DNA of 57,619 bases, filler included, from Jimgerdemannia flammicorona (taxonomy: Eukaryota): the NCBI GenBank assembly GCA_003990765.1. It is 3 parts of 3 records of this genome, joined end to end, with 100 filler letters (N's around TTAATTAATTAA, not from the genome) between each part and the next. Parts side by side here need not be neighbours in the genome. Positions count along the whole stretch, not along the records: positions 1 to 19,142 come from RBNJ01002014.1; 2 more parts are not named here. One strand, written 5' to 3'. Below, one piece after another: positions 1,200 to 48,989 of this stretch. Each line of letters starts with the position of its first letter. The stretch's first letter is position 1. The position numbers and the translations under genes are program-made. Under the pieces are notes generated by a model. It did not search any database, was not told the origin of the DNA, and saw nothing but the letters and a program-made list of their open reading frames with translations.

Positions 1200-4100
1200 A
1201 GTACTTTTTAAGTCAGTTTTGATAGATAGTAGTGGGGATTATTATGCCTGATATTTTTTATAGTCAAAAGGTATCTTGCACCAGGTAAGGTCCTTTCTAC
1301 TTAGGCTCTAGTTTTTGTAACCATGAAGCTTCTACTATATTCTAATATATTAAAATTTTATCTTCTATCTTGATAATCTCCAGGGGCTTGTGAATCTTTT
1401 TTGCATTATTCTATTATAGTACCTATACCTTGGTTATATAATCCTCAGCCTTCTTTCTAATTTGGTGTAGTCTCTATATCTCTGTGTCTATATATTTCTA
1501 TACAGTATCTCTTGAGGAGTAAAATGGGTACTTTGTGATCAGATATTCTAAAGAGCAGATAATGCTATTGCAGATAGTGATCCTAGTTTTTATAATTATT
1601 ACAGATCTTAGTAATGATATTCTTGAGAGTCTTATTGATTCTTTCTACTTGTCTATTTCTCTAAGGATAATAGACTGTAGTCTGAATATGCTGGATCTTA
1701 TACTTCTTATAGAGAACCTCAAAGAACTGATTCACAAATTCTGTTCCTCTATCTATAATTACTTGTGCTGGGGTCTTGACTAGCAGATGATTTCTTTGTA
1801 GAAGAAATTAGTAATTAACTGTGTATTAACTTCTTTAAGAGGTCCTGCCTCTATCTACTTTGTAAAAAGGTCTACAATGATGATGATGTATTAGTTGTCA
1901 GTCAAAGTCAAGGGTAGAGGGACAATTATATTTATTGCAATATATACAAAGAGTACTAATTCTATGTATACTAATCCTGGGGTCTGATTTTATTGATCTT
2001 ACTTCTATTTCTGGTATCTGTCACAGGTCTTGACAAATTGTCTGATATCTTTCTCTATTCCTGATCACCACATTGTTCTTCTTACTTTATCATATATATT
2101 TTTTCCTCCTAAATAGCCAAGTTCATATACTGATTTTATTGCTTGCTTCTTCTTGTATTTAGATATGACTAGTAGCTTTTCTTTCTTTAGTATTTCTCTG
2201 TCAGTCTTGAATTGTTTCTATATTCTGTTGATAATCATTTGTATTCATTCTTTTAGATGTTGGGACAACTTTTGCTGTCCCAGATAGGTGATAGTTCTAT
2301 AGTAGAGTTTCTTATTCATGGTTGATTTATTGGTTAGAGGTCCTTTGGGGTATCTGTGAGAGGACATCTACATTGATATTGATTCTTCTAGAGTAGTATA
2401 TGATAGTTATGTCATAAGCTTGCAACTTTATAATCTATCTGACATAGATTCCTTTAGATTGCCTGGTGGTCAGTAGCTAGGTGAGGGCTGGGTGGTCTAT
2501 CTAAATAGTGAAGTATCTCTCTATAAGGTAGTAGTAGAACTTTTCTACAGCCCAGATGACTGTAAGACATTTTAGCTAATAGGATTCATATTTCTTTTTA
2601 ACTCTTCAAGTTTCTTAGCTGAGATATGTAATGATATATTCTACTTTATCTTTCTTCTGAGCCAGAACTACTCCTAGTTCTTGTATATTTATATCTATCT
2701 GCAGAATGAATTCTTGAGTCCAATCAGGTCTTCTGAGGATAAGTACTTGGGTCAGCCTGATCTTGAGTTTATTAAATACTTTTTGTTACCTACTGTCTAT
2801 TGAAACTTAACAATCTTCTTATTGAGTTTATAAATTAGTCTTGTGATGTTGGAGAATCTCTTGATGAATCTTTGATAGTATGAGATAAGTCCCATAAAGG
2901 CTTAAGCTTCAGTGATAGTAGTGGGCCTTGGGTATACTACTACTACTCAAATCTTAAGAGAGTCTGTATGTATTCTATCTTAATTGATAATATGGTTAAG
3001 ATAGAAGATCTCAATTTCTGCAAACTTATACTTCTTGGGCTTGATATAAAGAGCATACTTCTTTAGCTTCTCTATTTTCTACTAGATATACTATAGATAT
3101 TCTTTGGCTATCTTACTATAGATAATAATATGTATTATCTATATAAATCATTATCCATCTTTCCATATTATAGTAAAAGATCTTGTTTATCATTTATTGG
3201 AAACTTACTGATGTATTATATATTCTAAATAGTATTTGCAGGTAGACATAGATTTTATCTGGAGTAATGAAGACTGATTTTTCACTTATTACTTCTGTGA
3301 GACTAATTTAGTAGAATCCTGAATATAAGTCTAGAGTACTGTAGTACTATACTTTATCTTCTAAGGTTATAAGGATATCACTGATAAGGGGTAGTAGTTA
3401 GTGATCCTTCTTTATAGTCAGATTAAACTTCCTGTAATTGGTACAGAGTCTTGAGGTAAATTCTCCTAGTTTGCTTCCTTTTTTTAAAGCTAATATAACT
3501 AGTGAAGCCCAAGGACTGCTGGCTTCTTTGATGATACCAGTTTCTTCCATCTGCTGGATTTCTTCTCTGAGCTATTCACAATAATCTGATGGAATTGGCC
3601 TTGCTTTTTGATAGATTGATTCAGTATCTTCTATATCTATATTATAATAGTAGTACAGAGTTTTTCTCTTAATATCCTTGAAGTCTGTGGCTAGGATATT
3701 CTTGAATTTATAGAGTATCTTCTTGAGTTCCTTCTTGAGTAGGAATTCATCTCTAATGGTATAACTATACTTATTTGTAGTTTTCTTCTTTTTATTATTC
3801 AATTTGGTAATCTTGATACTGGTAAATACTCTTCTTTTTGTGGATTCAAATTCTTTCTTTTCTCTTTTCATTTCCTCCAACTTCTTAACCTCCACAATCC
3901 TTGGCTGAAGAGCTAAGAAGATTAACATTTATACTAGTTAGTTTTTTTTCTTAATTGAGAATAGAATTGTAGAATTGTAGTTCCTAGCAATGAGTAGTAT
4001 TTCTCTAATATAGTCTGAATTGATGACTCCTCCTTTGATAGTAATCTCACTCTTGGCCAGACTGTTTCTTGTCTTGAGAATCCTAATATAGTTCTTTGGA

Positions 4101-6409
4101 ATAGTCATTTCTAGACTCATTGTAAGCAGGGTGGTAGTCTGGGGCTCTAGTATAGTTTCTTTAGCTGTGGTAATATCTATTCCAGCTATATTCTCTAACT
4201 TATATTCTGATAGAACTGCATCAGGGTGGATTTTCCAAATCTTGACCTTGATTTCTTCTTCATCATCATTGTTCTCTAAGAGGACTAGTAGTTCATCATC
4301 CTTTTTCTCCTCCTTCTCTTGTCTTATCTGTTTTTTAAGAGTCTTCTGTCTTCTTTTATAGTAGATTTTCTTGATTCTACTAATATACTGATAGTAATTA
4401 TTAATATGTTTTATATAGTATATCTTAATTCTATGAGGGCAGACTCCTTGTGGTATATATCCTTTAATAATCCTTTTGCATCATTCTTCTTTACTGATCT
4501 ATCTGACTTTTTTCTTCTTTTTCTGTATAGTTACCATATAGGTTTCTTTTTGCTCACTTTCTTCTTCTTTTATCTCAGGTAGTACTTTTTTATTGATATT
4601 GATGGGAATTCACATCTTCTGACCTCAGTGGATAATTGACATCTTTTGGGTATTGAGGTTGATTATTGCTTTTATGAAGCCACTGATTACTGATGAGTAT
4701 GTCATAGTTGATAGTATTGATTATGAATACATTTACTGAGATAGTTGTTCCTCCAAACTTAATGGGGATATCTCAGATCTTTCTCAGAGATATAACTCTT
4801 ATATCATCTACTGTAATGAATACCAATTTGATTACTTCTTCAACCTCCCAACCTAGGTAGTCTGCTGCTTTCTTACTGAGAAGACATCCTTCTGCTCTAG
4901 TATCAATGATGACCTCAAAGATTCTATCTTCAATTTGATAGATTGTATAGACAGATATCTTGTAATTATCCTTGCTCTCTTCTCCAGAGTCTTTTTGAAC
5001 ATTGTTGGTCTCAGTTTTCTTTCAATCTTGCTCTTTGATTATCTCAGCAAGTCCATATCTCATTTGCTATCTGAATGTGGATATTTTTGCCAGCTGGCCA
5101 AAGGTTATATTGATCTTTTATTGACTGAGATTCTTGAAAATATCATACTTAAAAGTCTTGATCTTACAAAGCTTCTTTTCTTTTTCCCCTTTACTGGCTG
5201 GGATATTTTCTTGAATAATATCTTGAATAGTCTGTTCTAGTTTTATATTTTGATCTATTTCTTCACCTTGGCTTTCAATAGTAGTTTCTATCTATTTTTC
5301 TACAGAGTTCTTCATAGGTCTCTCTGGCAGTCTCGTAAGATTGCTTGTGAATATACTTCTTAACAGTCTCAGTAGTATAGACTTTCTATTTTTCTTCATC
5401 TGATTCTCCAATCTCCTCAAAGATGATAGTATTGGCCTATTCCTTATTTTAAGTAGTATTGCTTGGCTGAGCTTTATACTTAATCTCACTTATATATTTA
5501 TATAAGTAATGGTCTTTTTCTCTACAAGTATAGCAGGTACCTCTCTTTTTGTCTGAGGTGGCAGTAAACTTCTGAACTGAACAGCAGTCTCTTTTTCTAA
5601 TTTTCTTTATTACATCTCTAAGATAGGTAGTTATTTTAGCAAACTTCTTAACAAGTTTCTCTATAGAGTCATTATTTCTCTACTACTCAGTAGCTCTTAG
5701 CTAAGGTGTATTTCAATTGATTACTGTAGTAAGAATTATACTAGTTGCCTTGAGCACTTCAATTCTGACTCTAGTGACTCTTTTCATTATATGGTCTTAT
5801 AGATGTCTAACTATCTAATATCACTGGATATAGGTGATCTTCTGTGATAAGTTCAGGACTACTAGTAATGAGCAGATAGCCATTGCTATCTCTTTTTATG
5901 AAAATTACTTCAGCTACCTGGTCTTGAATTGTATCAGTATAATTTGCAAAGATTATCTGATATTAGATTCTAGTATAGAATGTATTTGGATCTACACTTA
6001 TTTCTTAATATGTTATATTGAACTAATTCTTCAGTACTTGCTTGATCTTATCTATATAATAGGTGGTTTAGAGCTAGGCCTTCTGTATTGCTAGTATAGT
6101 ATTGTCATCATTTTCTATATAGGTTATAGCTATAAATGTTGCTCTTGCTAGTTCTTAGAGACTGAAGGACAAGAGAGCTACTTGCTATATTACTGTTAGA
6201 GTCCTTACAGCAATATACTGCTCAAAGTTATTAATAAATATAATAATTGATTCATCTGAGATATATTTATAGAATACTGATAGTCTCATATTCATCTTGT
6301 CTGAATGTCTTGGTTTGATTTGTATGATTGTTTAGATAATAATAATTATTCATTATTTAGCTTGAAAGTGAGGAATTGGTCTTGAATCATCAGCCAATAA
6401 GTACCAAGT
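1200..6409 (-). mobile_element. Degenerate Ty3/Gypsy LTR retrotransposon internal region (gag-PR-dUTPase-RT-RNaseH-IN), family A
   Basis: Colinear with the better-preserved element at 22349-28479. Integrase C-terminal KLEPK*KGPY near 1290; RT remnants ~2900-3600 (IYQKARPIP); dUTPase remnant KTRNSLAKSEITIKGGVINSDY at 3938-4120; protease ~4600-4950; gag ~5700-6300. Many stop codons. Confidence 0.9.
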
Positions 6410-8519: not shown

Positions 8520-8980
8520 ATACACACGCATTATGTGCTTATTTTCTAACTCACGTTATTTTTTACCCAACGCGTTTTCTCATCCAACGCGTTGTTTTCT
8601 CACCCAACGCGTTATTTTCTCACCCAACGCGTTGTTTTCTCACTCATCGCGTTGTTTTCTCACCTACGCATTGTTTTACGCACGTAGTGTTTTTTTACGC
8701 ACGTAGTGTTTCGGACATTCGCATTGTTTTCTTACACGCATTGTTTTCTTATGCGTAGTGTTTTTTTACCCACGAGTTATTTTCTTTCCCACACATTGTT
8801 TTCTTATCCATGCAATGTTTTCTTACGCCCACATTGTTTTCTTATGCATGAATTGTTTCTCACCAACATATTGTTTCTTACGCATGTAGTGTTTTCTTAC
8901 CTTGGCATTGTATTACGCATGTAGTGTTTTCTTACTCGAGCATTCGCATTGTTTTCTTACCCGTGCATTGTTTTCTTACT
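8520..8980. repeat. ~20-bp minisatellite (CGTTGTTTTCTCACCCAACG and variants)
   Basis: Near-perfect 20-bp units at ~8570-8660 decaying into TTGTTTTCTTAC variants. Confidence 0.85.
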
Positions 8981-10302: not shown

Positions 10303-11318
10303 TTTCCGGAGTTTTGTATCATTTCCCTCATCGTGAATAAATTAAGAAAACGGAGTTGCTCTTGGTATGAGCGCAATTAAGGGATCCGTTCAACAGGTTC
10401 ATTTTCAGGCCCTTTATTGTCTGTCATATTTCACACGCTCTGTAAGGCATGTGTTTGGTGGACCATCCAAATTGAGGTGGTTGTGGAACGTTCGTGCAAG
10501 TAGACTTTTCCACCTTTTCATTCCACCATTCTCTATGCTTACAAGGTGTTACATAGTTAGCAAAAAAAAAAAAAGTATAAATATGAGGGCTCATTGTAAA
10601 TTATCATATCGGAATAAGAGTGGGTGAGTGAAAGGAAGGTTATAATCAACAAAAGAAGCGTAATCTAAAGGAACTACGTAAATTCGGAAGAAGAACGCGT
10701 GCAAAGAATGAACGCAATCAAAGCCAGGATCCATTATCAGCAAAGATGACAGGTTCATTTTCAGGCTTGACAGGTAGCCTTACGACACTTCACTTAAGAT
10801 ATTCACTGTCAAAAGAGTCGATAGATTTGCCTCTTCGGGCAATATACCGCGACCAATTTCATGTAGCTCACTCAACATCAAGTATTCGCAAGCACACCAA
10901 CATCCACTTAATAGAATGTCATGTACCATTACATTCTTCGAAGACGTCAAACCTACACAGTTGATCACCACATCCACACCAATGCCGATACCACAATACT
11001 CTTTCAAGTGTGCGTGTAAAACAGCGCATGCACATCGAACTGGTACCAACCATATCTCCTTGCGGCCAGACATTCACACGAAGCTACAATTTTTATATCA
11101 GCACCAGGTGTGGGGATGAAGATAAACAGACAGTGATCTGCAGCCGTTTTATATGCTAATCGGCATAACTTCTATATATACGTAATTAATTATATGTACA
11201 TATATCACAAATTGCTATAATAGGTTGCCTATTCATAATGAAAGAAGAATACACAAAATGTATACCCATGGTTATCAACTAGAAACTAAACAGACGGATG
11301 CAAAAACTTAACACAATC

Positions 11319-14300
11319 TTAAATCGTGATTGTGAGGGTTGTGTTCACTTTCTGCGCTTCGGCTAGTCCGCTGGTTCCGTGAATACCAATACCATTGTCT
11401 ACAGAGGAACCCCAGAATCATGTCAGCTGGAACGATAGTCAGTTGAATGCAAAAATGTGACGCGCTTCGCTCTTCTACATACATTCAAGATTCAGGTTTT
11501 GCAGGCTCATGTTCGTTTTCAGCGCTTCGGCTAGTGCGCTGGCTCCTTCATCGCCAATACCATTTTCTACAGAGGGGCCCATAGAATGTACGAGCGTGTT
11601 TACCAACCGGAATGCTAAACGGATGAATGCAAAAAAAATGAAGAGATTCGTCTCCCTACATACCACCTAGATTCAGGATTTGTATACTCGTGTTCGTTTT
11701 CAGCGCTTCAGCTAGTGCGCTGGCTCCCTGATCGCTACTACCATTATCTACAGAGGAATTCATAGAATGTATACTCGTGGTTATCAGCTGAAACGCCAGA
11801 CGATGAATGCAAAATAGTGACGCGCTTCGTCCAGTTACATACGTCGTAAATTCAGGTTTTGCAGGCTCGTGTTCATTTTTAGCGCTTCGGCTAATACGCT
11901 GGCACCCTGAACGCCAATAACACTGGCTATAGAGGAACCCAGAGAATGGGTGCGCGTGGTTGTCAGCTGGAACGCTAAAAATGTGGCGTGCTTCGTACCC
12001 TTACATACCGTGTAGATTCAGATTTTGCAGGCTCATGTTCGATTTCAGTGCCTCGGCTAGTGAGCTGGCTCCCTGATTGCCAACAACATTGTCTACAGAG
12101 GAACCCATGTACGCGCGTGGTTGTCAGCTGGAACGCTAAATAGATGTAAAAACCACGCACTTCGTACCCTGTAGATTCAGGTTTTGCAAGCTCGTGTTTG
12201 TTTTCAGCGCTTCGGCTAGTGCGGTGGCTCCCCGACTGACAATACGAGTGGCTACAGAGGAACTCATATAATGTACGCGTGTGGTTGTCAGCTGGAACGC
12301 TAAACAGACGAATGTAAATATGTGACGCGCTTAGTTTCCCTACGTACATTTTAGATTCAGGCTTTGCATGCTCGTATTCGTTTTCAGGGCTTCGGCTAGT
12401 GCGTTGGCTCCCTTATCGCCAATACCATTATCTGCAATGGAATCCACGGAATGTTGTCAGCTGGAATGCTAAATAGAAATGTGACGTGCTTCGTTCTTCA
12501 TAATTACATTCTAGATTCAGGTTTTGCAGGTTCGTGTTCGTTTTCAGGGCTTCGGCTAGTGCGCTGGCTCCCTGACCAAAAATACGATTGGCTACAGAAA
12601 ACCCGGCAGAATGTACACGCGTGGTTGTCAGTTGGAATGCTAAACAGATTAATGCAAAAATGTAACCCCTGTATACATTGTAGATTCATGTTTTGTATGC
12701 TCGTGTTCGTTTTTAGCGCTTCGGCTAGTGCGCTTGCTCCCTGGTCGCCAATAGCATTGTCTACAAAGGAGCCCACATAATGTACGTGCGTAGTTGTCAG
12801 CTGAAACGACAAGCAGATGAATGCAAAAATCTGACATATTTCGTCTCCCTATACCACGTAGATTCAAGTTTTGGATGCTCGTCGTCGTTTTCAGTGCTTC
12901 GGCTAGTGTACTAGTTCCATGACCGCTAATATCATTGCCTACAGAAATCCAAAGAAGGGGCGCATTGTTTTCACCTGGAACACTAACAGATGAATGCAAA
13001 AATGTGACGCACTTCGTCCCCCTACATACGTCGTAGATTCAGGTTCTGTATGCTTGCGTTCATTTTCAGTGCCTCGGCTAGTGCGCTGGCTCCCTGATTG
13101 CCAATACCATTGTCTATAGAGGAGCCCATAGAAGGTATGCGCGTGATTGTCAGCTGGAATGCTAAACGGATGAATGCAAAAATATGATGCACCTTGTTCC
13201 CGTACTTACTTTCTAGATTCAGGTTTTGCATGCTCATATTCGTTTTTAGCGCTTCGGCTAGTGCTCTGGCTCCTTGATCGCCACAACCATTGGCTACAGA
13301 AAAGATCATAGAATGTACGCGCAGGGTTGTCAGCTGGAGTGCTAAAAAGATGAATGCAGAAATGTGAAGCGCTTTGTCCTCATACATACCGCGTAGATTC
13401 AGGTCTTGCAGACTCTTGTTCGTTTTCAGCGCTTTGGCTAGTGCACTGACTCCCTGATCGCCAATACGATTGTCTACAGAGGAACCCACAGAATGTACGC
13501 TCGTGGGTTTCAGCCGAAACGATATACAGATGAGTGACGCATTTCGTCCCCCAACATACATTCTAGATTCAGCTTTTGTAAGTTCGTGTTCGTTTTCATT
13601 GCTTCGGCTAGTGCGCTGACTCCCTGATCGCCGATGCCATTGTCTACAGAGAAACCCACAGAATGAACGCGCGTGGTTACCAGCTGGAGTGCCAAAAAGA
13701 TGAATGCAAAAATGTGAAGCGCTTTTCATACATACCGCGTAGATTTAGGTCTTGCAGGCTCGTGTTTGTTTTCAGCGCTTCGGAGAGTGCGCTGGCTTCC
13801 TGATCGCCAATACCATTAACTACACAGGAACCCACAGAATGTACCCGCGTGGTTGTCAGCTAGAACGCTAAATATGTGAATGCAAAATTGTGACGCGTTT
13901 CGTCCTCCTACATTCCTACAGACATTCTAGATTCAGGGTTTGCAGGCTCGTGTTCGTTTTCAGCGCTTCGGCTAGTGTCATGGCTCCTTGACTGTCAATA
14001 ACATTGTCTGCAGAGGAACCCACAGAATGTACGTCAGCTGGAACATTAAACAGATGAATGTAAAAATATGACGCGCTTCGGCTCCTACATACATTGTAGA
14101 TTCAGGCTCGTAAGCACTGTCGGCACGCTGGCTCTATGACCAGCAATCCCATTGTCTACAGAGAAACTCACAGAATTTAGGCGCGTAATTGTCAGCTGGA
14201 ACGCTAAACAGATGAGTGCGAAAATATGACGCACTTCGTTCCCTACTTACAGCGTAGATTCAAATTTTGCAGGCTCGTGTTCGTTTTCAGCGCTTCGGCT

Positions 14301-14684
14301 AGTTTGCTGGCTCCTTGATCACCAATATTATTGTCTATAGAAGAGCCCACAGAACCTCGTCAGCTGGAATGACAAACGTATGAATGCAAAAATGTGACGC
14401 GCTTCGTCCGCCTACATACATTCTAGATTTAGGGTTTGTAGGCTCGTGTTGGTTTTCAGCGCTTCGGCTAGTGCACTGGCACCCTGACTGCCAATACAAT
14501 TGTCTATAAAGGAACCCACATAATGTATGCGCGTGGTTGTCAAATTGAATGCTAAAGAATGAATGCAATACATAATGCTCTTTGTCCTCATCATACATAC
14601 CGTGTAGATTCAAGCTTTGCAGGCTCGTGTTCGTTTTCAGCGCTTTGGCTAATGCGCATACCTCTGTATCTCCAAGATGATTGT
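11319..14684 (-). repeat. Tandem array of 20 exon+intron units, one LRR per exon
   Basis: Exons: 14601-14684, 14420-14503, 14251-14334, 14093-14155 (63 nt), 13924-14007, 13736-13819, 13560-13643, 13390-13473, 13210-13293, 13030-13113, 12855-12938, 12677-12760, 12508-12591, 12348-12431, 12168-12251, 12009-12092, 11843-11926, 11664-11747, 11483-11566, terminal 11319-11398. Internal exons all AG/GT bounded and phase 1. Consensus xNxIGDQGASALAEALKTNTSLQNLNLx. Confidence 0.95.
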
Positions 14685-17071
14685 CTATAGGGACCAATAA
14701 AAGGCTAACAGTTAAAATATGATATATTTTGATTTCATATGTTCTCAAGCTTGGAAGGCTCGCCTTTATTTGCACTACTTCAGCTACAATGCCAACTTCC
14801 TTGTTACTGCTGCTACAAGCTCAACAAATACGAATCTCAAACGTGAGCTGTGGCTACTAGATGTAGATATTATTGTTGTTATTATGTACCTGGAAGATGG
14901 AATTCCCTAAGTTGAAAACACTTCTGAAGAATATTGTTAAACCTACAAATAGGTAAAGGTTGATTTATCAGCAAGTATTATCTGATCAACAAGTGACTGA
15001 TCTGACATTAGACAAAAATATTAAATAAAAAATTGTCATACTCTATATTCTTTGTACGCTTTAGTCTAGATAAGCATTTTAATAGCAATATATCTTAGTA
15101 TTTATTATGTCAAATTCAACAAATAAAATATTAACAAACTTACATTAGTATTTCAATAGTGTTTACAGAATAAATAAGAGCTTCTACATCTTCTGAATGA
15201 GAATTTGTACAAGCTATAAAGCTATAGTTTGACTATTCATTAGTAATTATTAAAAAGTGAGGAAGGATTGAAGTCAAAATTATTACCTGATTTTACGCAG
15301 AGGGACATCACACAGTATGTGCACCACCAAATTTCGAAATGTATGTAAAAATTCATTTGATAAACCCTGGATTCTGTTTTAAAAATAAAAACTGTCATGA
15401 ATATGCAAACCGCTAGATATGAAAGACACATCATAGATCAGAAAATAATGCGAACTTCAATTCCCAAGTCTCGTCGTCAAACTTAACGCTGCGATCTATG
15501 GAACTGCTTTTGATAGCTGCATGGAGACTCCGAATAGCATTTGTCGTCTCCCATTCCAAGGCATGATTCTTGCACACCCATCGCACTGCTATACCACCGT
15601 TTTCCTCACGACGGAGCACGCGCTGCAGATTCCCAGGTCGGCTGGCGTTAGCCATGCCCGAGAGATAAGCTAAATATCGAAATTCGAAAAGAAAATATGA
15701 GTAATTAGCGCGCGCACACTAGAGAAGAAATAATCAATGTATCGCTGCACCTTGAAGTTCTCGTAGATCAGGTCTTTCCGTCGGTCCTGGAGTTCTTCCT
15801 TGCGCCTGAATCGACGGCGGAGCATCAGTCATATATATCTTGATCTGATTAAAAATTTTCTTAGTCTGTGCGCAGAACTCAAGTTCGTGATCCGTAAAGA
15901 TCGACGATTCTGTTTCCTTGTATACGGTTGAAGCAACTTGATCGCCAGCCCGTCGGACCTCTGCTGCCGCTTCCCGGAATGCAGGAACACATTCCAATAG
16001 CCGTCCTCCCAAGCGTACTGCCAGCAAAAGACAGGGCATGACCTATTTCGCACGAGAAATGTTAGATGGTGTGCAAAGAGTGTTCGGAAGTCCAAGCTCA
16101 AACAAATGACATACCATATGTATGTATGGCCCATATTTAGCAACAAACTGAAATAAATTTAAGTAGAGATATGTTAAGCAGAAAAATAAATACTGGCATC
16201 ATGATTGCTGGAGTGCGTGTGATATCGTATAATAAATAACATACCTCGCGTGGTCGGACAATACGGTAGCCGTCATGATATGCCAAATGAAACTGTTTTT
16301 TCGTGCTGCCATTTCCGATGGTTTCGTGCTCGCAGAGGAAGTATAAACGGAAGGTTTTGGTGAAGAAGCTGTCAATTGATGGGGCCCACCAATAACCATC
16401 CTCGGGAAAGATGAAGAAGAGTCGCGGAACTGTATCCTCATGGAGATCAAGAATAACCTTGGGCAGGCTGTCAACCTTGCCGTAAAGTTCGTCGAGGCTG
16501 CTGAATATGTCTCTCGTGTCTCCCGTGTCATTTATGTCTGCAGTATCACCCTTGTCGTTTATTATCTTCTGTAAGATCCATATACATATGGAGAAAAAAG
16601 AACAAAACGTTGAAGTTGCGTAAACGTCATAAGGATAATACAATAACACAAAATATCGATCTTTACTAACCGACGCCAGATCTGAAAATGGAGCTGAGAT
16701 GATGGAATATTTCGTTTCAGTTGGCAAGAGCATCGAAGATTTTAAGAAACGACGGTAGGGGTCATTCACTGGACGACAAAATTCCATGACAGTTGACTGG
16801 AATAATATATGTGATAATAGCTACCTTTCAATCGGGTAATCTCGTTTATAATTTTCTTCACAGGACCACCTCGTAAATTATACGGAGGTTCCAATAGGTC
16901 ATTTTCAGTGAGTAGAATGAGAGTGCCTCCGTCTGTTTCCTGATCGCGTAGGATCGCTACATGGTCGGGTTTCAATTCGAGAGCAGGGTGTTGAAAGTGC
17001 TCGAAAACTCTGTGTTCATTCCAGATCTTGATTTCGTCAAGCGAAGGAGTTGTAAGTTCTTTGGAGGACAT
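11319..17071 (-). CDS. Multi-exon SAM domain + uncharacterised middle domain + 20x RI-like LRR protein (receptor-like; no NTPase seen)
   Basis: Manual GT-AG splicing: 16825-17071 (SAM), 16671-16681 (micro-exon, tentative), 16245-16568, 16115-16147, 15751-16042, exon from 15669, tentative small exons ~14700-15375, then the LRR exons to TAA at 11319-11321. Spliced motifs PRLFFIFP, RLYFLCEH, HDGY..RPRE-FVAKYG, DLRELQAYL..GNLQRV..VRWVC..H. The link between ~14920 and 14684 is uncertain. Confidence 0.8.
16825..17071 (-). CDS. SAM-domain first exon, proximal copy
   Basis: ATG at 17071. W..(V)..F...L.L...H..IL.DQE.DG..L.LLT..DL.....L..GP..KI pattern typical of SAM domains. Phase-1 GT donor after 16825. 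Confidence 0.75.
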
Positions 17072-17415
17072 GGTATATCGATGAACTTTATGAAGAATTG
17101 CCGGCAGATGAGTATTCGATCCCAGAAGTCAAACAATTAAAACACAAGTTATAATACGATCCCAGATGACAGAGTTGTATGTTGCGCCAAGACAATAATT
17201 ATCAAAACAAAGAATTCGCACCTTCCGTAGATGATTTTTTCATAGATTCATGTTGACTTCCCGTTCCTAGTCAAAACCAAAAATGAAATTTACTTGTTTC
17301 AGTTGGAAGTTATGAAGAAATGACCATGACTGATGGTATGGACATTCACCGGACGGTAAACTCTTGAAGATCCTCCACAATAGTTGATTGGAATAATATA
17401 TGTGATGATAGTTAC

Positions 17416-17662
17416 CATTCAATCGGGCAATCTCGTTCATAATTTTCTTCACAGGCCCACCTCGTAAGTTATACGGAGGTCTCAATAGGTCATTTTCGGT
17501 GAGTAGAATAAGAGTACCTCCGTCTGTTTCCTGATCACGCAGGATCGCTGCGTGATCGGGTTTCAATCCGAGAGCAGGGTGTCGAAAGTGCTCGAAAACT
17601 CTGTGTTCATCCCAGGTCTTTATTTCGTCAAGCGAAGGAGTTGGAAGTTCTTTGGAGGACAT
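17416..17662 (-). CDS. SAM-domain first exon, distal duplicate
   Basis: Same 247-nt length, ATG and phase-1 donor as 16825-17071. Translation differs at only about ten residues. Confidence 0.7.
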
Positions 17663-18829
17663 GATAACGGAGGTAGAGAGGTGTACAACGATGAATTGCC
17701 ACCAGGCGAGTATCGTAATCAAATGAACTCTTTCAGATGTCAGGTTTGTTCTCGTGACACCTTCAGGATTGACGGACCCGAGCCAAATGCTATGAATATA
17801 TAGTATCTATACTATAATTGAGCAATCTACAAGTCATGAAGTCATGGGGTAGTGGCATAAACCTACGACCACCACCTCCATGTAGCATGTAGTACAAACT
17901 CTGTAATGAGCGATTGCCAACATTGTTTCCCAGGCCACCTTTTAAGGCACGTGGGATTTACAACGGTTGTCGATGTAATCACATGACGTTCTAGCGTGGA
18001 TTATATTAGTAAAAGGCTGTATAGATAGGGTTGTTTGTTAAGATAATAAAGTCAGATTTCAGCTTATTGGACTAGGAAGGGGAGAATTCGGTGAATTGAC
18101 AAGAACGCGCGATTAAGGGATCTGTTCAATAGGTTCATTTTCAGGCACTTTGGACAGGGCAAACGATTGTCCTTTATTGACTGCGAATTTCTGGTGATAT
18201 TTCACACGCCTCCCGCATGAATGCGAACAAGCCCCTTGTCGTTCTCTCCGTCGCCCAACCTCTAAAATCTTACCACCTAGGGCAATCAACCAATTCATCG
18301 ATGGTGCCAAACAATCTTCACAACCGCAGAGTCCCTCCATTCCCCCAACCCTCTGCGACCAGCTCCTTACCATCGAGGCTAAGGGTAATGTGTGACAAGC
18401 CCCTCACACACAATGTTCATTAAGCCCAAGCGTCTGCCGAAGCTGCGATGAATCGGTCAACAAACAGCGTGCTAGCTCCAAAGGGTACGTTTATTTATTC
18501 ATTCATTCTTATGGCAGTATAGAGTGTTCGGGATGCTCGACAGCAGTTTTATTTTGTCCAATGTGATGTTTTATTTCACGATTCCAGCGATTTGCTAAAG
18601 ATAGAGGCAGAGGCCGTACAAGCCATGGAATTGGGTATGTTGATAAGTTGGGTTTCGTGGGATGAAGGTGTGGTCGGGAATTTGAATGTGTCGAGAATGG
18701 GAAACATCATAATTTTCAGGAGGATCGGATGTACGAGCCGTTCTAATATTCCCTTACCCACTAAATCATTGCTTCATTGTTTTTCGATACACTCATCTCT
18801 GCTGATGCTGCTCAGGTTCACAAGTGGTA

Positions 18830-18867
<38 letters not shown>

Positions 18868-19142
18868 ACCCTCTCTCTCTATGATCGCGTAGAGGTCGAT
18901 ATCGCCCATATTAACTTCGCGATACTGAAATTCATGGCGCTGTCGGACTCCGATGGCGAGGACGATACAGTAACAGTGATGATGGTGACGATGGCGGCGA
19001 TGGCGGCGATGATTAAGAGGAGTATGACGCAGACGGTGGAGAAGTTTTGGCGCAAGTTGTTGTGATGAAGATATCATCTCGTACGTTATATACGCGTGGG
19101 CAATTCTTAAGTGAGAGGGATTGGAGTTTTTTTTTTTTTTTT

Positions 19143-19242
19143 NNNNNNNNNNNNNNNNNNNNNNNNNNNNNNNNNNNNNNNNNNNNTTAATTAATTAANN
19201 NNNNNNNNNNNNNNNNNNNNNNNNNNNNNNNNNNNNNNNNNN
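19143..19242. other. Assembly gap linker (N44-TTAATTAATTAA-N44)
   Basis: Artificial spacer with stop codons in all six frames. Confidence 0.97.
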
Positions 19243-19529
19243 CATGTTGTGTTGAGCTGATCCTTCAGGGCTTGCTTAATCTCATCTGTGTAATATGTGT
19301 TTCGGAGCCAGGTCTTCTGTGCTGTCAGTATGGCATTGGCATCATTTCCTGCATAGGTTGCGGCTATGAATGCTGCTCTGGCAGGGCCTCGTAGGCTGAA
19401 GGGCATGAGGGCTACTTGCTGTGCTGCTGTCAGGGTCCTTACAGTAGCATACTGCTCGAAATCATCAATGAAGGTGATGATTGATTCATCTGAGATATAT
19501 CCATGGAATACTGGTGGTCTCATATCCAT
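19243..19529 (-). CDS. gag: Retrotransposon Gag N-terminus (family A, young copy, cut by the gap)
   Basis: MDMRPPVFHGYISDESIITFIDDFEQY...LRGPAR, homologous to 27928-28350; just downstream of the PBS. Confidence 0.8.
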
Positions 19530-20793: not shown

Positions 20794-22348
20794 TGTCATA
20801 TAGTGGTCACTGAGTCCTTCAAATATGTCAGATTCTCTTCAAGATATATCTCTTAGACTAACTCAAGTTTGTTATAAGCAAGTTCTTATTGGAGTGCCTT
20901 CCTAAGGTCTTGTAGTCCTCAAACTTCTTATCTTTAAACTGTCTTGTTATCTCTTAGATTGCTTGTAAGAAAGTGTGTGTATTGTACTGAGAAGAACTGA
21001 CTTTATTGCAGAGGAAATAAGAAGAGTATTTATACAAAATATAATTCAATAGTTGCTAAGATATAAAGCTAAATATAAATTCCAATAACTAAAATAAAAT
21101 GCCAGGACAGGAAAAACTGCTAAGTTCCAGAGTCAGCACTAATAGTTGTATAGATTCAGAATGCTGGTATAATTTGGTATTATATCAAAATACTGGTACT
21201 GGCATTATTTAGTATTACATCAAAATGTCAGTACTGGCATTATTCAGTATTATATCAAAATGCTGGTACTGACATTATTTAGTATAACTAAGAGACTTAG
21301 AGCAGAATGTTCAAGACCATAGGAGTTTCATCATTAGAGATCAGGATGTCTTTAAAGGAGATGAGGTCTATGAACATCTCATCTGTCTCATCATTGTCAT
21401 CACATATGTCATGCAAGATGATATCATCACTGATGATATCATCACATTTGGCAGTAGGGAAATCAGGGACTCTCCAATCTATGAGGTTCTCTTCTACAAA
21501 ATAAGGGACAAATGTGGGGTCTTGGGGAGGTCTAACCTGAATGCTTGGGTCTTGGAATACTGAGATCAATCCTTGTAGGAATTGGTCTGGGTTGTCCTGA
21601 AGGATGGGATGTCAGAAGTCTTCTACTTCATCACTATTGAGAGTGATAGTGGACTGGGCTTCTGTAGCCACCCTGGCTTTTAGTGCATTGATATGGTGGA
21701 ATGACAGGTCTCTGAAATCTGAGACTCTAACATACTCTAAGTTGGGGATCAACCATAGTACATGCCTGAAGATCTGATGAATCTTCTTAGCTATTCTCAT
21801 TTCATATATATCCATGGGAGTGGTATCTTGTAGCTCTTAAGTGCTGGCCTGTGGGAACTCCTAGTAGAGGAGGTTTTCTATTTCATATTCCTGCCATATT
21901 TGGAGGCATTCAGTAGCAATGGTGATTCTGGTTTCCATTTCATAATGATAGAGGATATAGTGATAAGGGTCACCAGTATCTAGGTTGACACTCGGAGTCC
22001 TTCTTGAGTGGGTCCTCATGGCTCTTCTGATGTCTTAGAACATCCTTTCTTCAATTGAGGTGCCTTGGTGGTTCCTTGACCTTGAGGTTTGGCAAGCAGC
22101 AGACATTTTATTTGTAGTGAGTCTTTGAGCTATTTTGGGATTGATGGGTCTTGTTGGTTGTTGTTACTGTAGTTTCTTGATACTTCTTTTATATTCCTCA
22201 AGATGCTTGTACTGTGGTCACAATGACTCACAGTTGGTCATCATTGCTCATCTCATATGCTGTATAATCTTCTTATGCTCTGATCTGGTGACTTGTAAGG
22301 AAAGACTATCTCCTATGCTGATGTCATCATTCTGGGGTCACTGTTACA
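20794..22348 (-). repeat. 3' LTR, family C (1555 bp)
   Basis: Direct repeat of 28480-30101. TGT...ACA termini. About four 35-bp tandem units at ~21160-21290. Confidence 0.92.
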
Positions 22349-23750: not shown

Positions 23751-25849
23751 CATTGACAAATTCTGTGCTGCAGTCTGTTGTGATTTGCTTTGGTATCTTG
23801 TAGCAGCAAATGATTTCTTGGTGTAGGAAGTCAGCTATAGAGAGGGCATTGACTTCTTGTAATGCTCTTGCTTCTATCTATTTGGTAAAGAGGTCTATAA
23901 TAACTATAATATAGCAGTTTCCTGATAGTATTACTAGTAGTGACCCAATGATATCTATTGTGATATAGTGGAAGGGGATAGGCTCAATTCTTGATGACCC
24001 AGGTGCCTGGTCTTGCTCTTGTTTCTGTTTTTGGTACTTGTCACACTCTTTGACAATTGATACAGGTCTTCTTTCATCTTAGGCCACTACATAGTTCTTC
24101 TTGCTTTATTATATGTGTTGGTTCCTCCTAGGTGTCCTTGCTCATATACTTCCTTCATTACTTAATACTTCTTATATTTGGATATTACTAGCTTTCCTTC
24201 TTTTCTGAGTATAGTGTTGTCTAGTTCAAACTGTTTCCAAGTCTAGTTGATGATGGTGATTGTCTAGAGTTTGAGGTGGTTGGATATCTTCCACTACCCA
24301 AGATAGCTGATTAATCCATAGTATAGCTCCTTATTCATGTTGAATAGTCTTGATGGGAGTATTTCAGAGTATCCTTAAGAGTGTATTGGTATTGGTATTG
24401 GTTCTTCCTAAGTGGTGCTTGACAGTACAGTTATACTCTTATAGCCTGTAGATCCATCTGGTATATATTTCTTTGGAGTTCAGAGTGTGAAATAGCCAGA
24501 AAAGAGCAAAATGATCTGTTTGAATAGTGAAGTGTTTCCTAGCTAGATAGTAGTAGAACTTGTCTACTGCCCAAACTACTGCTAAGCATTTGAGCTTACA
24601 TGACTTATAGTTCTGTTTTGCTCCATGGGTACCTTGGCTTATATAGAATATGACATATTTATGTCCATCTTTCTTCTGAGCTAGGACTGCTCTAAGTCCT
24701 ATAGCACTTGCATCTATCTACAGGATGAATTCTAGGTTCCAATCTGGTCTTTTGAGGATAGGTGCTTGGGTCAATCTGGTCTTGAGTTCATTGAAGATTT
24801 CTTGGCACTCCTTGGTCCATTCAAATTTGGTTTCCTTCTTCAGTAGCTTGTAGATAGGTGCTGCAATGTTGGAGTATCCTTTGATGAATCTTCTGTAGTA
24901 GCTGGCCAGTCCAAGGAAGGCATGGACTTCTGTGGTCATTCTGGGTCTCAGGTAGCTGCAACAGCCTCAATCTTCATAAGGTCTGTGTGGATTCTGGTCT
25001 GGTTGATGAGATATCCTAGATAGGCGATTTTTTGAGCTACAAACTTACATTTCTTGGGCTTGATGTAAAGGCCATACTCCTTGAGCTTCTTGAGGGCTAG
25101 CTGTATATAATTGATATGTTCCTGTGCAGTGTTGCTGAAGATGATCACATTATCAACATAGACAAAGAGCCATTTTCCAATCTCATTGCTGAAGACTCTG
25201 TTCATCATTCACTGGAAACTTGCTGGGGCATTGCACATTCCAAATGGCATTTGCAGATAGATATAGGTGGCATCAGATATGATGAAGGCTGATTTCTCAC
25301 TGACATCTTGAGTGAGACCAATCTGATGGAAGCCTGAGAACAGATCCAAGGTGGTGTAGTATTTGGCTTTGCTTCTAAGAGTGGTAAGGATTTCTTGAAT
25401 ATTTGGCAAGGGCTGCCTATCCTTCTTGGTGATGGCATTGAGTTTCCTGTAGTTAATGCAGAGTCTTGGCACAAACTCTCTAGACTTGCTTCCTTTCTTT
25501 GAGGTGAGGACAATGGGTGAAGCCCAGAGACTGATAGCTTGCTTGATGATTCCAGCTTCTTCCATTTCCTTGAGTTCTGCTTGCAGCCATTCTCTGTAGG
25601 CAGGTGGTATGGGTCTGGCTTTCTGGTAGATGGGCTTGGTATCACCAGTGTCAACTTTGTGGTAGTACTTAGATTCTTGATTGTGGATATCCCTGAAGTC
25701 TGTAATAAGTACTTCTTCATTCTGGTACAAGATCTTGAGAAGTTGTTCCTTCAAGGGAAAGTTTTCTCCAATGATATATGTGTGCTTGTTCTGGTCCTTG
25801 TCTTTCTTGTGCTCAAGTTCAGTAATCTTAGTAGTAGCATAGGCTCCTC

Positions 25850-26260
25850 TTCCAGTAGATCCAAAGCCTTGTTCTCCTCTCTTAGTCTTGATGAGTTTGA
25901 TGGCTTCTATGATCTTGGGCTTCTTGATTTCCTGGATCAGCATCTGGCCAATCCTGTCATGCTTCTTGATTTTAAATGGGGTAGTGGGGTTGTGATTTCT
26001 AACTATAAGGAAGATCTCACCAGTATAATCAGAGTCAATTACTCCTCCTTCAACTGAGATTTCACTTTTGGCCAGACTGCTCCTAGTTTTGATAATTCCA
26101 GCATAATCCTCTGGTAGCTTGACTCCAATTCCAGTGCCAAGTAGAGTGGTGGTCTGTGGTTTGAGGGTAGTATCTTGAATGCTGGTAAGGTCTATTTCTA
26201 TAACTCCTTCAGTCTTGTATTCTGGGATCTTGGCTTTGGGGTGAAACTTCTTGATCTTGA
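25850..26260 (-). CDS. dut: Trimeric-type dUTPase domain within pol
   Basis: Motifs IDL, KTRSSLA, GVIDSDYTGEI, DRIGQM, RGEQGFGSTG inside ORF 25209-26441, in frame with RT. Confidence 0.93.
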
Positions 26261-27183
26261 GGGTGATGTCTTGTTCTTGTTTCTCCTCATCATCACTATC
26301 AGCCTGAAGCTCAGGGGGCTGGTCATCTTCTTCAGCTTTCCTTTTTACTTTGGTGGCTTCTTGCTTATGTTTCTGTTGGTGGATTTTCTTGACTTCACTG
26401 ATACAGGACCAGCAGTCATTCAGGTGTTCAGAGCAGTACATTCTAGTACCATGGGGGCATCTTTCTTGAGGGGCATAGCCATCGATGATCTTGTTATACT
26501 ATTGCTCATCTATGAGCTTAGGTGTCTTGTTCTTGTTCTTGTTCTTATTCACCGAGTGTATGAAGACTTCTGTGTCCTCTTTATCTCCTTCCTCTATATC
26601 TGGTAGGACTCCCTTGTGGACATTGATAGAGACTCATCCTTTCTTTCTCTGTAGTTGATCTGCATCTTCTGGGCATTGAGGTCAATGATGGCCTTGGCCT
26701 TATGAAGCTATTAGTTACTAATGAGAATGTTATAGTTGGTGGTGCTTGTAACAATCACATCTACTGGGATGGTAGCTCCTCCTATCTTTATGGGACTTCT
26801 TGGATTTTACCAAGGGGGGTAGCTCATATACCATCTGCTGTAACATAGACCATCTTGGTGGACTCTTCAATATCCCAGCCTAGGCAGTCAATTGTCTTCT
26901 TACTCATAAGGTATCCTCCAGCACCAGTATCAATGATGGTATCAAAGATACAGTCTTTGATCTGACATGGGGTATAGGCTGATATCTTGTACTGGTCTTT
27001 GGATTCTTCATCTGAGTTTTCAGATTCTTCCTGTATATTGTGAGCTTCTACAATCTTGTACTCTTGATTCTTGGCAGTAGTTGCAAGTCCTACTCTCAAC
27101 TGCTATCTGAAGGTAGGGACTTCAGCTAGCTGTCCAAAAGTAGTATTGACCTTCTATTCCTTAAGGTCCTTGTAGATATTATA

Positions 27184-28479: not shown

Positions 28480-30101
28480 TATCATATAGTGGTTGCTGAG
28501 TTCTTTAAATATGCCAGATTTTCTTCAAGATGTCTCTTAGACTAACTCAAGTTTGTTATAAGCAAGTTCTTATTAGAGTGCCTTCCCAAGGTCTTATAGT
28601 TCTCAAACTTCTTATCTTTAAACTGTCTTGTTATCTCTTAGATTGCTTATAAAGAAGTGTGTGTATTGCACTGAGAAGAACTGACTTTATTTTAAAGGAA
28701 ATAAGAGAAGTATTTATACAAAATATAATTCAATAGTTGCTAAGATATAAAGCTAAATATAAATTCCAATAACTAAAATAAAATGCCAGGACAGAAAAAA
28801 CTGCTAAGTTCCAGGGTTGGTACTGATGGTTGTACAGGTTCAGGATGCTGGTATAATTCAGTGTTACATCAAAATACCAGTACTGGCATTATTCAGTATT
28901 ACATCAAAATGCCGGTGCTGACATTATTCAGTATTACATCAAAATGCTGGTACTGGTATTATTCAGTATTATATCAAAATGCTAGTGCTGGTATTATTCA
29001 GTGTTATATCAAAATGCCAGTACTGGTATTATTCAGTATAATTAAGAGACTTAGAGCAGAATGTTTAAGACTATAGGGCTTTATCATCAGAGGTCAGGAT
29101 ATCTTCAAAGGAGATGAGGTCTACGAATGTCTCATCTGTCTCATCATTGTCATCATATATATCATGCGGGATGATGTCATCACTGATGACATCATCACAT
29201 TCAGTGGCAAGGAAATCAGGGGCTCTCCAATCTATGAGATTCTCTTCCATAAAATAAGGAACAAATGTGGGGTCTTGAGGGGGTCTAATCTGGATGCTTG
29301 GGCCTTAGAATACTGAAATCAATCTTTGTAGGAATTGGTCTGGGTTGTCCTGAAGGATGAGATGTCAGAAGTCTTCTACTTCATCACTATTGAGGGTGAT
29401 AGTAGACTGGGCTTCTGTAGCCACCCTGGCTTCTAGTATATTGATATAGCAGGATGACAGATCTCTGAAATCTGAGACTCTAACATACTCCAAGTTGGGA
29501 ATAGACCATGGTATATACCTGAAGATCTGATAGATCTTCTTAGCTGTCCTCATTTTATGTATATTCATGGGAGTGGTATCTTGTAGCTCTTGAGTGTTGG
29601 TCTGTGGGAACTCCTGGCAGAGGAGGTTTCCTATTTTGTATTCCTGCCACATTTTGAGGCATTCAGTAGCAATGGTGATCCTGGTTTCCATTTTACAGTG
29701 GTAGAGGATATAGTGATAAGGGTCACTAGTACCTAGATTGATACTAGGAGTCCTTCTTGAGTGGGTCCTCATGGCTTTTCTGATGTCTTGGAATATCCTT
29801 TCTTCAACTGAGGTACCTTGGTAGTTTCTTGACCTTGAGGTTTGGTGGGCAGCAGGCATTTCATTTATAGTGAGTCTTTGAGCTATTTTGAGATTAGTGG
29901 GTCTTGTTGGTTACTGTTACTGCAGTTCCTTAATCCTTCTTTTATATTCCTCAAGATGCTTATACTGTGGTCACAATAACTCATAGTTAGTCATCATTAC
30001 TCATCTCATATGCTGTATAATCTTCTTGTGCTCTGATCTGGTGGCTTGCAAGGAAAGACTATCTCCTATGCTGATGTCATCATTCTGAGGTCACTGTTAT
30101 A
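28480..30101 (-). repeat. 5' LTR, family C (1622 bp)
   Basis: Direct repeat of 20794-22348. Termini decayed to TAT...ATA. About six 35-bp tandem units at ~28845-29040. Confidence 0.92.
29365..29859 (-). CDS. LTR-encoded accessory ORF of unknown function
   Basis: 164-aa ORF, sense to the element. Homologous disrupted copy in the other LTR (~21612-22107). Confidence 0.55.
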   Translation of the reverse strand: MPAAHQTSRSRNYQGTSVEERIFQDIRKAMRTHSRRTPSINLGTSDPYHYILYHCKMETRITIATECLKMWQEYKIGNLLCQEFPQTNTQELQDTTPMNIHKMRTAKKIYQIFRYIPWSIPNLEYVRVSDFRDLSSCYINILEARVATEAQSTITLNSDEVEDF

Positions 30102-47944: not shown

Positions 47945-48268
47945 TCCTTATACTCCTTGATGACCTCTACAATCAATCCTCTGGCCATCTTCTTCAACAC
48001 TACAAGTATATCTACTACTATCAACTATATCACTCAGGGGTTCCAGCATAAGCACTGGGCCATAGGGACCACTCCCCCCCCCCACTACTACTCTCTTCTC
48101 TATTGCTTTCAGCAGCATATTCTTCTTCTTGAAATCTATCTCCACCCCTTCCAGTCTCTTCAAAAATTTTACCAAGGCTGCTCCCTTCACCTCCTGGGCC
48201 AGAAACCCCAGAATCATTCTCACTATATTACTAAGCCCCAGAAACACAATGTGATGATGAATTCTGAC

Positions 48269-48303
<35 letters not shown>

Positions 48304-48870: not shown

Positions 48871-48989
48871 TGGCTGGCAACTTCTTCTGCTACTTATATC
48901 CCTAAGCCCTCTCCCACTGCTCATTATTCACCTGAATACACTTCCCATCCACTACCTCCAAGTGTATTGAGTTTACATATGCCTACCAT

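Follow-up and report, generated by a model that had tools for sequence, protein, structure and literature searches.

The subject of this report is a gene on the minus strand of a 57,619-nt stretch of DNA from Jimgerdemannia flammicorona (assembly GCA_003990765.1), referred to below as the window, which joins parts of three records end to end and along which all positions are counted. The gene has 32 exons and 1111 codons (17662-11319), and its 3' half is an array of 20 tandem exon+intron units in which each exon encodes one leucine-rich repeat (LRR). The array is likely to be the product of old tandem duplication, now encoding a constitutively spliced scaffold that would bind ligands, within an ordinary germline-encoded and transcribed Mucoromycota gene. 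What is new is the setting, that is, an NLRC3-like array with one repeat per exon in a large, uncharacterised Mucoromycota family that is devoid of an NTPase. An earlier note on this DNA had proposed a candidate diversifying immune-receptor locus and had itself named simple old tandem duplication as the alternative; it is towards the latter that the data lean.

Anatomy of the LRR exon array

Unit borders were set by anchoring on the conserved core, which places 20 tandem exon+intron units at 11319-14684 on the minus strand, an interval that reaches from the stop codon to the first base of LRR exon 1 and coincides with the one given in the earlier note. The count of 20 in that note also stands, but its unit length of about 160-190 bp has to be replaced by 148-188 nt, the shortest unit (148 nt) being the one with a 63-nt exon. 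LRR exons 1-3 and 5-19 all have a length of exactly 84 nt, and exon 4 one of 63 nt; the introns of the array measure 75-104 nt and are all in phase 1, the codon for repeat position 1 taking its first base from the last base of the preceding exon. AG stands before every LRR exon and GT after every internal one, and the spliced frame contains no stop down to the TAA at 11321-11319. These exact borders agree with the previous description of phase 1-1 internal exons and of a frame open to a terminal TAA, as well as with the remark that units could be dropped or swapped in frame: all internal exons are multiples of 3 in phase 1-1, so that any LRR exon can be skipped without a frameshift. Several of the donors are weak (GTATAG, GTATAC, GTACGA, and GTAATT).

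The tandem repeat signal is far beyond chance. Tandem Repeats Finder reported a period of 180 (11.4 copies, 68% matches, score 1285) and a period of 350 (7.7 copies, 70% matches, score 1791), and an nhmmer profile built from 19 units recovered all 20 of them (E 1.1e-22 to 4.3e-56); in the rest of the window, the same profile found nothing beyond one weak, decayed copy. The better score at 350, together with an exon identity of 0.794 between units two steps apart versus 0.775 between neighbours, marks a weak two-unit period.

Read in the direction of transcription, the array opens with LRR exon 1 (14601-14684), whose acceptor is used in a transcript joint (14684->14890). Exons 2-19 were placed by their borders, in most cases together with transcript joints or a match to the Pfam family LRR_6. 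Exons 2 (14420-14503; LRR_6 E 0.003) and 3 (14251-14334; E 0.0072) are followed by the shortened exon 4 (14093-14155), which has 7 codons fewer and from which part of the helix is gone, and by exon 5 (13924-14007). Exon 6 (13736-13819) is linked onwards by joint 13643->13736; exons 7 (13560-13643; LRR_6 E 7.8e-4), 8 (13390-13473; E 7.2e-4), 9 (13210-13293), 10 (13030-13113), and 11 (12855-12938) have joints on both sides, and exon 12 (12677-12760) is reached by joint 12760->12855. For exon 13 (12508-12591), no joint is among those listed, and an unspliced contig (12562-12706) spans its upstream intron. Exon 14 (12348-12431) is linked by joint 12251->12348, exons 15 (12168-12251), 16 (12009-12092), 17 (11843-11926), and 18 (11664-11747) again have joints on both sides, and joint 11566->11664 leads to exon 19 (11483-11566; LRR_6 E 0.0034).

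The array closes with a truncated unit. The coding part of LRR exon 20 (11319-11398), placed by frame, is a diverged last repeat that is in register at its start and is ended by the TAA. Contigs 11226-11398 and 11204-11398 continue from this exon into the 3' untranslated region (UTR), and the intron-like tail of the unit, now 3' UTR, is recognised by the unit profile at 11243-11314 (the whole of 11398-11243 aligns with profile positions 1-176, E 1.1e-22). At the opposite end, nhmmer detected a decayed LRR unit (14691-14802, minus strand; profile positions 18-138, E 4.3e-4) within the 205-nt intron that separates LRR exon 1 from exon K, the last exon before the array. Joint 14684->14890 passes over this unit, which appears once to have been an exon and is now removed with the intron.

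Transcription and splicing

Contigs of two public runs (X1 and X2) from one organism and two studies, in which 39% and 24% of the sampled words matched, were aligned to 10800-18000, and the joints discussed here are the 15 listed of 39. In these joints, 11 array introns out of 19 (6|7, 7|8, 8|9, 9|10, 10|11, 11|12, 14|15, 15|16, 16|17, 17|18, and 18|19) are taken out at precisely the predicted borders, in both runs. The joint ends read CT..AC on the plus strand, which corresponds to GT..AG on the strand of the gene. Joint 11567->11666, with 98 letters skipped and one G inserted, places the same intron 18|19 in a slightly different way; the remaining joints listed are 14684->14890 (a 205-nt intron, X2 only), 17085->17222, and 17265->17415.

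Exon skipping occurs in none of the 15 joints, and all 11 within the array connect neighbouring exons; the transcript forms seen thus keep their exons in genomic order, which speaks against the previous proposal that the repeats are varied by splicing. Moreover, depth is constant through six consecutive joints covering LRR exons 6-12 (219.4 in X1 and 783.6 in X2), with a shorter side of 84 letters at several of them, and this constancy fits one contig that holds seven exons in genomic order. Because 14 different introns are removed precisely at GT-AG borders, spliced RNA is the plain reading, and the gene is transcribed and spliced as predicted. Formally, the intron-less joints might also derive from a processed DNA copy, the type of the runs being unrecorded. 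Four contigs of lower depth each retain an intron (12233-12377, 12562-12706, 12732-12884, and 14675-14905), as pre-mRNA or DNA carry-over would. Some joints carry diverged inserts that resemble the exon ends of a paralogue or an allele and are spliced at the same position; one contig form with diverged exon ends reaches a depth of 25000 in X2. Regions without contig cover (10800-11040, 17789-18000 and, in X2, 16584-16824) were not used as evidence.

Repeat class and selection

Nineteen of the 20 units encode 28 residues and one encodes 21, and the consensus of 18 units is xNGIGDQGASALAEALKTNTSLQNLNLx. On the basis of this length, of the LxxLxLxx(N/C)xL plus helix (xxLAxALxxN) consensus and of a profile match, the repeats can be assigned to the ribonuclease inhibitor (RI) type (RNI-like, LRR_6). 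Taken singly, 6 of the 20 exons match LRR_6 at E<=0.01, all of them under the cut-off of 23.4 bits because each exon comprises two half-models; the read-through open reading frame (ORF) matches at E 0.0085. The nearest relatives of the repeats are LRR proteins of Mortierellaceae, followed by NACHT-LRR proteins of corals and fish that are annotated as NLRC3-like. NLRC3 exons are 84 bp long. When a profile of the family was compared with the PDB, it matched ribonuclease inhibitor, NLRP14, NLRP2/3/5, and LRRC34 (E 1e-18 to 1e-36), with values of 1e-29 to 1e-36 for LRR structures of RI and NLRP proteins.

Variation between the repeats is unevenly distributed. Six residues are invariant in 18 units (L12, A15, K17, Q23, N26, and L27). 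By entropy, the most variable positions are 1 (2.86 bits), 3 (2.55), 28 (2.22), and 24 (1.99), and these make up four of the six concave-face x positions in LxxLxLxxNxI. Over the 153 pairs formed by 18 full internal units, dN is 0.196 and dS is 0.413 (ratio 0.47). At the 23 scaffold positions that are left when the four variable positions and position 6 are removed, the ratio is 0.34; at positions 1, 3, 24, and 28 it is 1.33, a value that applies to positions picked for being variable. At the six x positions defined a priori, pN/pS is 0.306/0.349, compared with 0.148/0.307 elsewhere. Positive selection is not claimed, given how the four sites were picked and given the values at the a priori sites; the concave-face sites are relaxed or diversified, not demonstrably under positive selection.

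History of the array and its introns

Between units, exons are identical at a mean of 0.772 of positions (range 0.583-0.869) and introns at a mean of 0.752 (range 0.653-0.847). Identity does not fall with distance along the array (0.775 at lag 1, 0.795 at lag 7), the small rise at lag 2 excepted. A maximum-likelihood tree built from 19 units has 16 inner branches, not one of which is well supported (13 have support under 80%), and end branches of 0.07-0.21. The tree is a star, without recent duplicates or converted pairs; together with a unit identity of at most 87%, it speaks against the second part of the earlier proposal, namely that the repeats are varied by recombination, as far as recent exchange is concerned. 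The decayed unit in the 205-nt intron and the truncated last unit show that units have been gained and lost in the past.

Splice signals and a CTGAC branch site account for part of the similarity of the introns. The blocks TTTTGCATTCATC and CCACGCGCGTACATTCTGTGGGTTCC recur in most of them (11399-14600). A helix between two complementary GC-rich 6-bp boxes was considered and rejected, as pairing is possible in 76.9% of cells versus 76.6% in shuffled columns, and in 79.1% when the candidate pairing is shifted by +2. RNAalifold found no consensus structure in the array introns, and no Rfam family reached its gathering score in 10500-18500.

The whole gene and its putative N-terminal SAM pair

The gene was extended upstream of the array by frame, splice signals, and contig joints. 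From the ATG at 17662-17660 onwards, no stop interrupts the frame before the TAA, and each of the 31 introns has GT-AG borders. Clean joints back 14 junctions; at a further 4, the joints contain a short insert. The predicted protein begins with two putative SAM domains and continues with a central region at about residues 217-470, which is followed by three irregular, LRR-like repeats (exons I-K) and the 20 regular LRRs. Mucoromycota homologues align colinearly with the model across residues 217-470 and across the LRRs, and the first of these two alignments supports the model of exons D-H. No Walker A motif (G....GK[ST]) occurs in the 1111 residues, and Pfam found no NTPase (NACHT or NB-ARC), Roc, or COR domain among the exons and ORFs of the gene's central portion.

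All upstream exons lie on the minus strand. Exon A (17416-17662) carries the start codon and the first SAM domain, and its placement draws on SAM_1, phmmer, and joint 17265->17415 (cut +1) in both runs. Exon B (17222-17266) is a 45-nt linker between the SAM exons, defined by joints 17265->17415 and 17085->17222 within one 410-nt contig, and exon C (16825-17085) encodes the second SAM domain. The two domains score 20.6 bits (E 5.8e-4) and 19.3 bits against Pfam SAM_1, whose cut-off is 23; a phmmer search of the PDB gave the SAM domain of L3MBTL3 (E 1.5e-4) as well as those of polyhomeotic and SARM1. A word-indexed protein search with the SAM exon, limited to the 'longer' length class, returned nothing at E<=1e-3. 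The domains are 89% identical (72/81 residues), and the pair goes back to a 591-nt tandem duplication (16783-17075 versus 17374-17666, 90% identity over 293 nt). The second copy retains an ATG of its own, and a shorter protein from this internal start is conceivable.

Exon D is a 23-nt micro-exon (16671-16693), for which X2 contigs have 22 letters between 16825 and 16569, identical to the genome but for one synonymous difference. Exon E (16245-16568), with 333 protein matches and a contig piece that ends at 16245, encodes the first 108 residues of the central domain, including the motifs VPRLFFIFPE, FRLYFLCEH, and HLAYHDGY. Exon F (16115-16147; 33 nt, FVAKYGPYIHM) was placed by frame and GT-AG borders, and its YG.Y aligns with homologues; an X2 joint near 16149 has a diverged insert. 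Exon G (15751-16042), the helical middle of the domain, is covered in both runs by contig pieces (15751-15976) that stop at its border, 15751, and by colinear homologues. Exon H (15456-15669), the end of the domain (GNLQRV...VRWVCKNH), was placed by frame and homologue alignment; its donor GTTCGC is weak, and a loose end in X1 at 15457 resembles a diverged exon I. The irregular repeats begin with exon I (15287-15373; 87 nt), a model exon whose phase 2-2 fits H and J, and exon J (15144-15221; 78 nt), likewise a model exon, for which an X2 joint uses the donor at 15144. A 24-nt micro-exon between J and K (15042-15065) is seen in X2 as 24 letters between 15144 and 14942 with one difference, and exon K (14890-14942; 53 nt), backed by the X2 joint 14684->14890, holds the last irregular repeat and shifts the frame to phase 1.

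The central domain and its relatives

A full HMMER search with the 108 residues of exon E against a database of 1.84 billion representatives (clusters at 50% identity) yielded 333 proteins with E<=1e-3, of which 18 reach E<=1e-10 and 2 reach E<=1e-30. The two best, with 67% identity, belong to Endogone sp. FLAS-F59071. Of 20 matches looked up, 2 are from Endogone, 10 are from Mortierellaceae (Mortierella, Podila, and Gryganskiella), and 8 are unnamed fragments derived from metagenomes or reads; all 12 named relatives thus come from these two groups, in keeping with the earlier placement of the array in an early-diverging fungus. Judged by this single domain, the host is a member of Mucoromycota with Endogone as its nearest relative. 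A word-indexed search with a 227-aa ORF around exon E, again in the 'longer' length class, gave nothing at E<=1e-3.

The motifs of the central domain are, in order, ELHEYPIPRLF / FRLYFLCE(CGE)HT / HLAKHEGY / YG.Y / LGNLYR / VKWVC, and their counterparts in the gene are DLHEDTVPRLFF, FRLYFLCEH, HLAYHDGY, YGPY, GNLQRV, and VRWVC. As judged from the presence of all motifs in this order and from colinearity over residues 217-470, the gene can be placed in this Mucoromycota family. The spliced model matches a Mortierella alpina protein at E 2.4e-155 with the LRRs included, and the repeats of homologues are likewise uniform at 28 residues (xNSIGDxGAQALSEALKTNSTLTTLxLx). Among 62 aligned family members, Pfam LRR_6 was found in 14 and an NTPase in none. 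In the precomputed domain list, one further Mortierella alpina protein (P0191) carries both Pfam NACHT (PF05729) and LRR_6. A NACHT-LRR layout has been described as unusual in fungi.

The fold of the central domain was approached in several ways. No Pfam family was found for it on the exons or ORFs of the gene, and in 25 homologues Pfam gave LRRs and weak coiled-coil matches only. The family profile matched PDB sequences through its LRR part only, and the best score in the ESM Atlas was 0.81, under the 0.9 level. In the AlphaFold2 models of P0120 (with its LRRs; mean pLDDT 79.8) and P0121 (66.5), both homologues, a small sheet and a beta-hairpin accompany a long helix and a long helical hairpin. 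Foldseek found no PDB match for the P0121 model at E<=0.001, and VIA-align gave no Z>=5 against 48,161 chains, the similarities being confined to single long helices. The modelled fold thus had no match in these searches, and novelty is not claimed for it.

One Mortierella-like soil metagenome contains 171 confirmed stretches of the family, with 67 distinct loci among the best 80. At these 67 loci, the domain is largely continuous (about 1070 nt for 360 residues). RI-type LRRs were detected there neither by the unit hidden Markov model nor by tblastn with five LRR regions (0 matches), which implies that other C-terminal regions accompany the domain at those loci. A literature search found no description of the family or of exon-modular LRRs in fungi, though supplements may list such genes.

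Comparison with known systems

The layout of one LRR per exon has already been described, as the earlier note had stated, in vertebrate NOD/NLRC and brown-algal ROCO genes, and exon-modular LRR domains of vertebrate NLRs and brown-algal ROCOs have been associated with isoform diversity. According to Hoss et al. (PMC6642158), most NOD and NLRC genes have one 28-aa LRR per exon in a strictly frame-preserving arrangement, each border falling at a fixed point of the beta-sheet; NLRP exons are 171 bp long and encode a pair of 28+29 residues, and skipping of exon 5 has been demonstrated in human NLRP3. The fungal gene shares with NOD/NLRC genes the frame-preserving, 28-residue RI-type LRR in each exon and a border that recurs at one point of every repeat, beside the beta-strand, as well as NLRC3-like matches in fish and coral; however, it has neither NACHT nor Walker A, and its N-terminus consists of a SAM-SAM pair rather than CARD or PYD. 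Its tripartite layout (SAM-SAM, central domain, LRRs) resembles that of an NLR in layout only, and identity as an NLR fails because there is no NACHT/NB-ARC NTPase or Walker A. With RNH1 and NLRP genes, it has in common the class of LRR and the growth of the array by exon duplication (the RI chain 4per_A is matched by the family profile at E 2.6e-33), but unlike the paired NLRP exons, its repeats are all of the 28-residue class and are encoded singly. Fungal and bacterial NLRs predominantly carry WD40, TPR, or other repeats instead of LRRs, as a review of fungal immunity states (PMC10197012), and a survey of 122 fungal proteomes records few NLRs in Mucoromycota (PMC12258605).

Brown-algal ROCO genes, as presented by Teng et al. 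(PMC11378527), have 72-bp, phase-2 exons with one LRR each, show signs of exon shuffling, and have annotated alternative transcripts; four concave sites are positively selected, and the products have been proposed to be immune receptors. The fungal gene resembles them in having one LRR per exon, symmetric phase, and variable concave-face sites. In contrast to their exons of 72 bp and phase 2 with LRRs of 23-24 residues, its exons are 84 nt long, in phase 1, and encode 28-residue RI-type repeats, and its LRRs are C-terminal, without the Roc or COR of the LRR-Roc-COR order. Moreover, neither alternative transcripts (among the 15 joints listed of 39) nor signs of shuffling (given the star tree) are seen. 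Identity as a ROCO gene fails, as there is no P-loop and no Pfam Roc or COR.

Close counterparts in design are Mortierella alpina KAF9565977.1 and KAF9963988.1 and Endogone RUS16121.1, in which the central-domain motifs are followed by 28-residue RI-type LRRs. The N-terminal region of these Mucoromycota homologues is mostly coiled-coil-like, unlike the SAM-SAM pair here, and the central domain of the Mortierella-like metagenome loci is largely continuous, whereas here it is split over exons D-H. SARM1 also has two adjacent SAM domains beside a repeat domain, with weak SAM alignment (E 0.044 to 0.4), but the fungal protein has no TIR, its SAM pair is a recent 89%-identical duplicate rather than an old one, and its best SAM match is L3MBTL3. 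Assembly of the lamprey VLR type was rejected because the germline gene is complete and open and its units are true spliced exons. Mutually exclusive exons of the Dscam type were rejected on account of the joining of neighbours at 11 array introns and the constant depth over six joints, and docking/selector pairing of that type on account of the RNAalifold result and the shuffled-column control.

Origin and use of the array

The preferred explanation, old tandem duplication, may be set out as follows. Repeated duplication of an exon+intron unit of about 175 nt would have built the regular array, and duplicating such a unit gives every exon the same length and phase without selection for skipping. 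The duplications would be old, the exons of the units now differing by 13-42%. Scaffold residues have remained under purifying selection, while the four concave-face positions are free to differ between repeats. Binding, oligomerisation, and any sensor role are functions that we infer for the product: the LRR solenoid would serve as a binding surface, the SAM pair would drive self-association, and the protein, as part of a lineage-expanded family, may act in the cytoplasm as a sensor or adaptor.

Two other explanations would make the array a source of diversity. That exon skipping, regulated or stochastic, provides LRR solenoids of varied length or surface from one gene seems quite unlikely. 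Multiple-of-3, phase 1-1 exons keep the frame under any skip, the 28-residue geometry is uniform across repeats, several donors are weak, and the unspliced contigs over four introns indicate that splicing is not always complete; precedents are also found in PMC11378527 and PMC6642158. Symmetric phase, however, is an automatic product of unit duplication, and what was observed of splicing is a set of listed joints without a single skip, depth consistent with seven exons in order, and intron boxes that pair like shuffled columns. Recombination, in which unequal crossing-over or gene conversion would shift the number and order of units among nuclei or isolates and so diversify receptors, is also unlikely. 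It could explain by homogenisation why introns are as alike as exons, and it is compatible with the earlier gain and loss of units, with contigs and diverged inserts that point to alleles or paralogues of the same exon design, and with the great expansion of the family in the soil sample. Against this, the ceiling of 87% on exon identity and the unsupported inner branches leave nothing recent in this copy, the same 11 array junctions are found in both runs, and identity is independent of distance in the array.

Two further readings, a pseudogene in decay or a satellite-like repeat that happens to be transcribed in transposon-rich surroundings, are highly improbable. Retroelements are abundant in the window (including a dUTPase and reverse transcriptase ORF), one unit has decayed, and exon 4 has lost part of its repeat, but a frame of 1111 codons open over 32 exons and 31 GT-AG introns, a dN/dS of 0.34 at scaffold positions with six invariant residues, exact splicing, and colinearity with full-length homologues all argue against both. 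A broader interpretation, to which we give little credence, is that the gene represents an undescribed, NTPase-less class of intracellular fungal LRR sensors; in the Endogone-like lineage, the sensor would have one repeat per exon, its binding surface being tuned by exon skipping or by unit exchange among alleles and paralogues. Such a class would combine a variable N-terminal module (here the SAM pair), a central domain so far confined to Mucoromycota, and an NLRC3-like LRR sensor.

Several observations weigh against the preferred explanation of an old, constitutively spliced array. The type of both runs is a guess ('RNA?'), none being on record as RNA; 15 of the 39 joints are listed, and contigs drop rare isoforms. 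Many contigs are only 95-99% alike (61/128 in X1 and 128/203 in X2) and, together with the diverged inserts, this indicates that close alleles or paralogues are expressed in the same samples. The introns are conserved like the exons (0.752 versus 0.772) and above synonymous sites (pS 0.31), which is unexpected for old neutral introns and could reflect homogenisation or an intronic function. In the gene model, junctions H-I and I-J were placed by frame, phase, and splice signals only. Finally, the central domain has no match in Pfam, in PDB sequences, or by fold, so that a role as sensor or adaptor is read from architecture.

Other features of the window

A retroelement ORF at 25209-26498 (minus strand) encodes a dUTPase (E 1.8e-27) directly upstream of a reverse transcriptase (E 3.4e-12), and a shorter look-alike lies at 3938-4480 (minus strand). 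Related 35-nt tandem repeats at 21164-21285 (3.5 copies) and 28848-29039 (5.5 copies), about 7.7 kb apart, surround the former and may belong to its long terminal repeats. A further tandem repeat of 19-20 nt (8554-8979; about 21 copies, 68-88% matches) is located about 2.3 kb downstream of the stop codon of the LRR gene. GC skew is -0.40 to -0.48 at 48001-56000 (42-50% GC) and +0.38 at 36001-38000, and long ORFs in the skewed regions give low-complexity translations rich in Ser, Pro, and Thr. The window contains 176 N; runs of X at about 19140-19240 stand beside poly-C and poly-G/Pro-coding runs (region about 18800-19250), and these N runs mark gaps about 1.5 kb upstream of the start of the gene.

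Significance

The presence of the same 28-residue design in a Mucoromycota fungus would fit either an independent origin of the one-repeat-per-exon layout or a very old one. If the family senses non-self, it would constitute an LRR-based arm of fungal immunity; if it does not, the array would be a textbook case of the growth of a repeat protein through duplication of an exon+intron unit.

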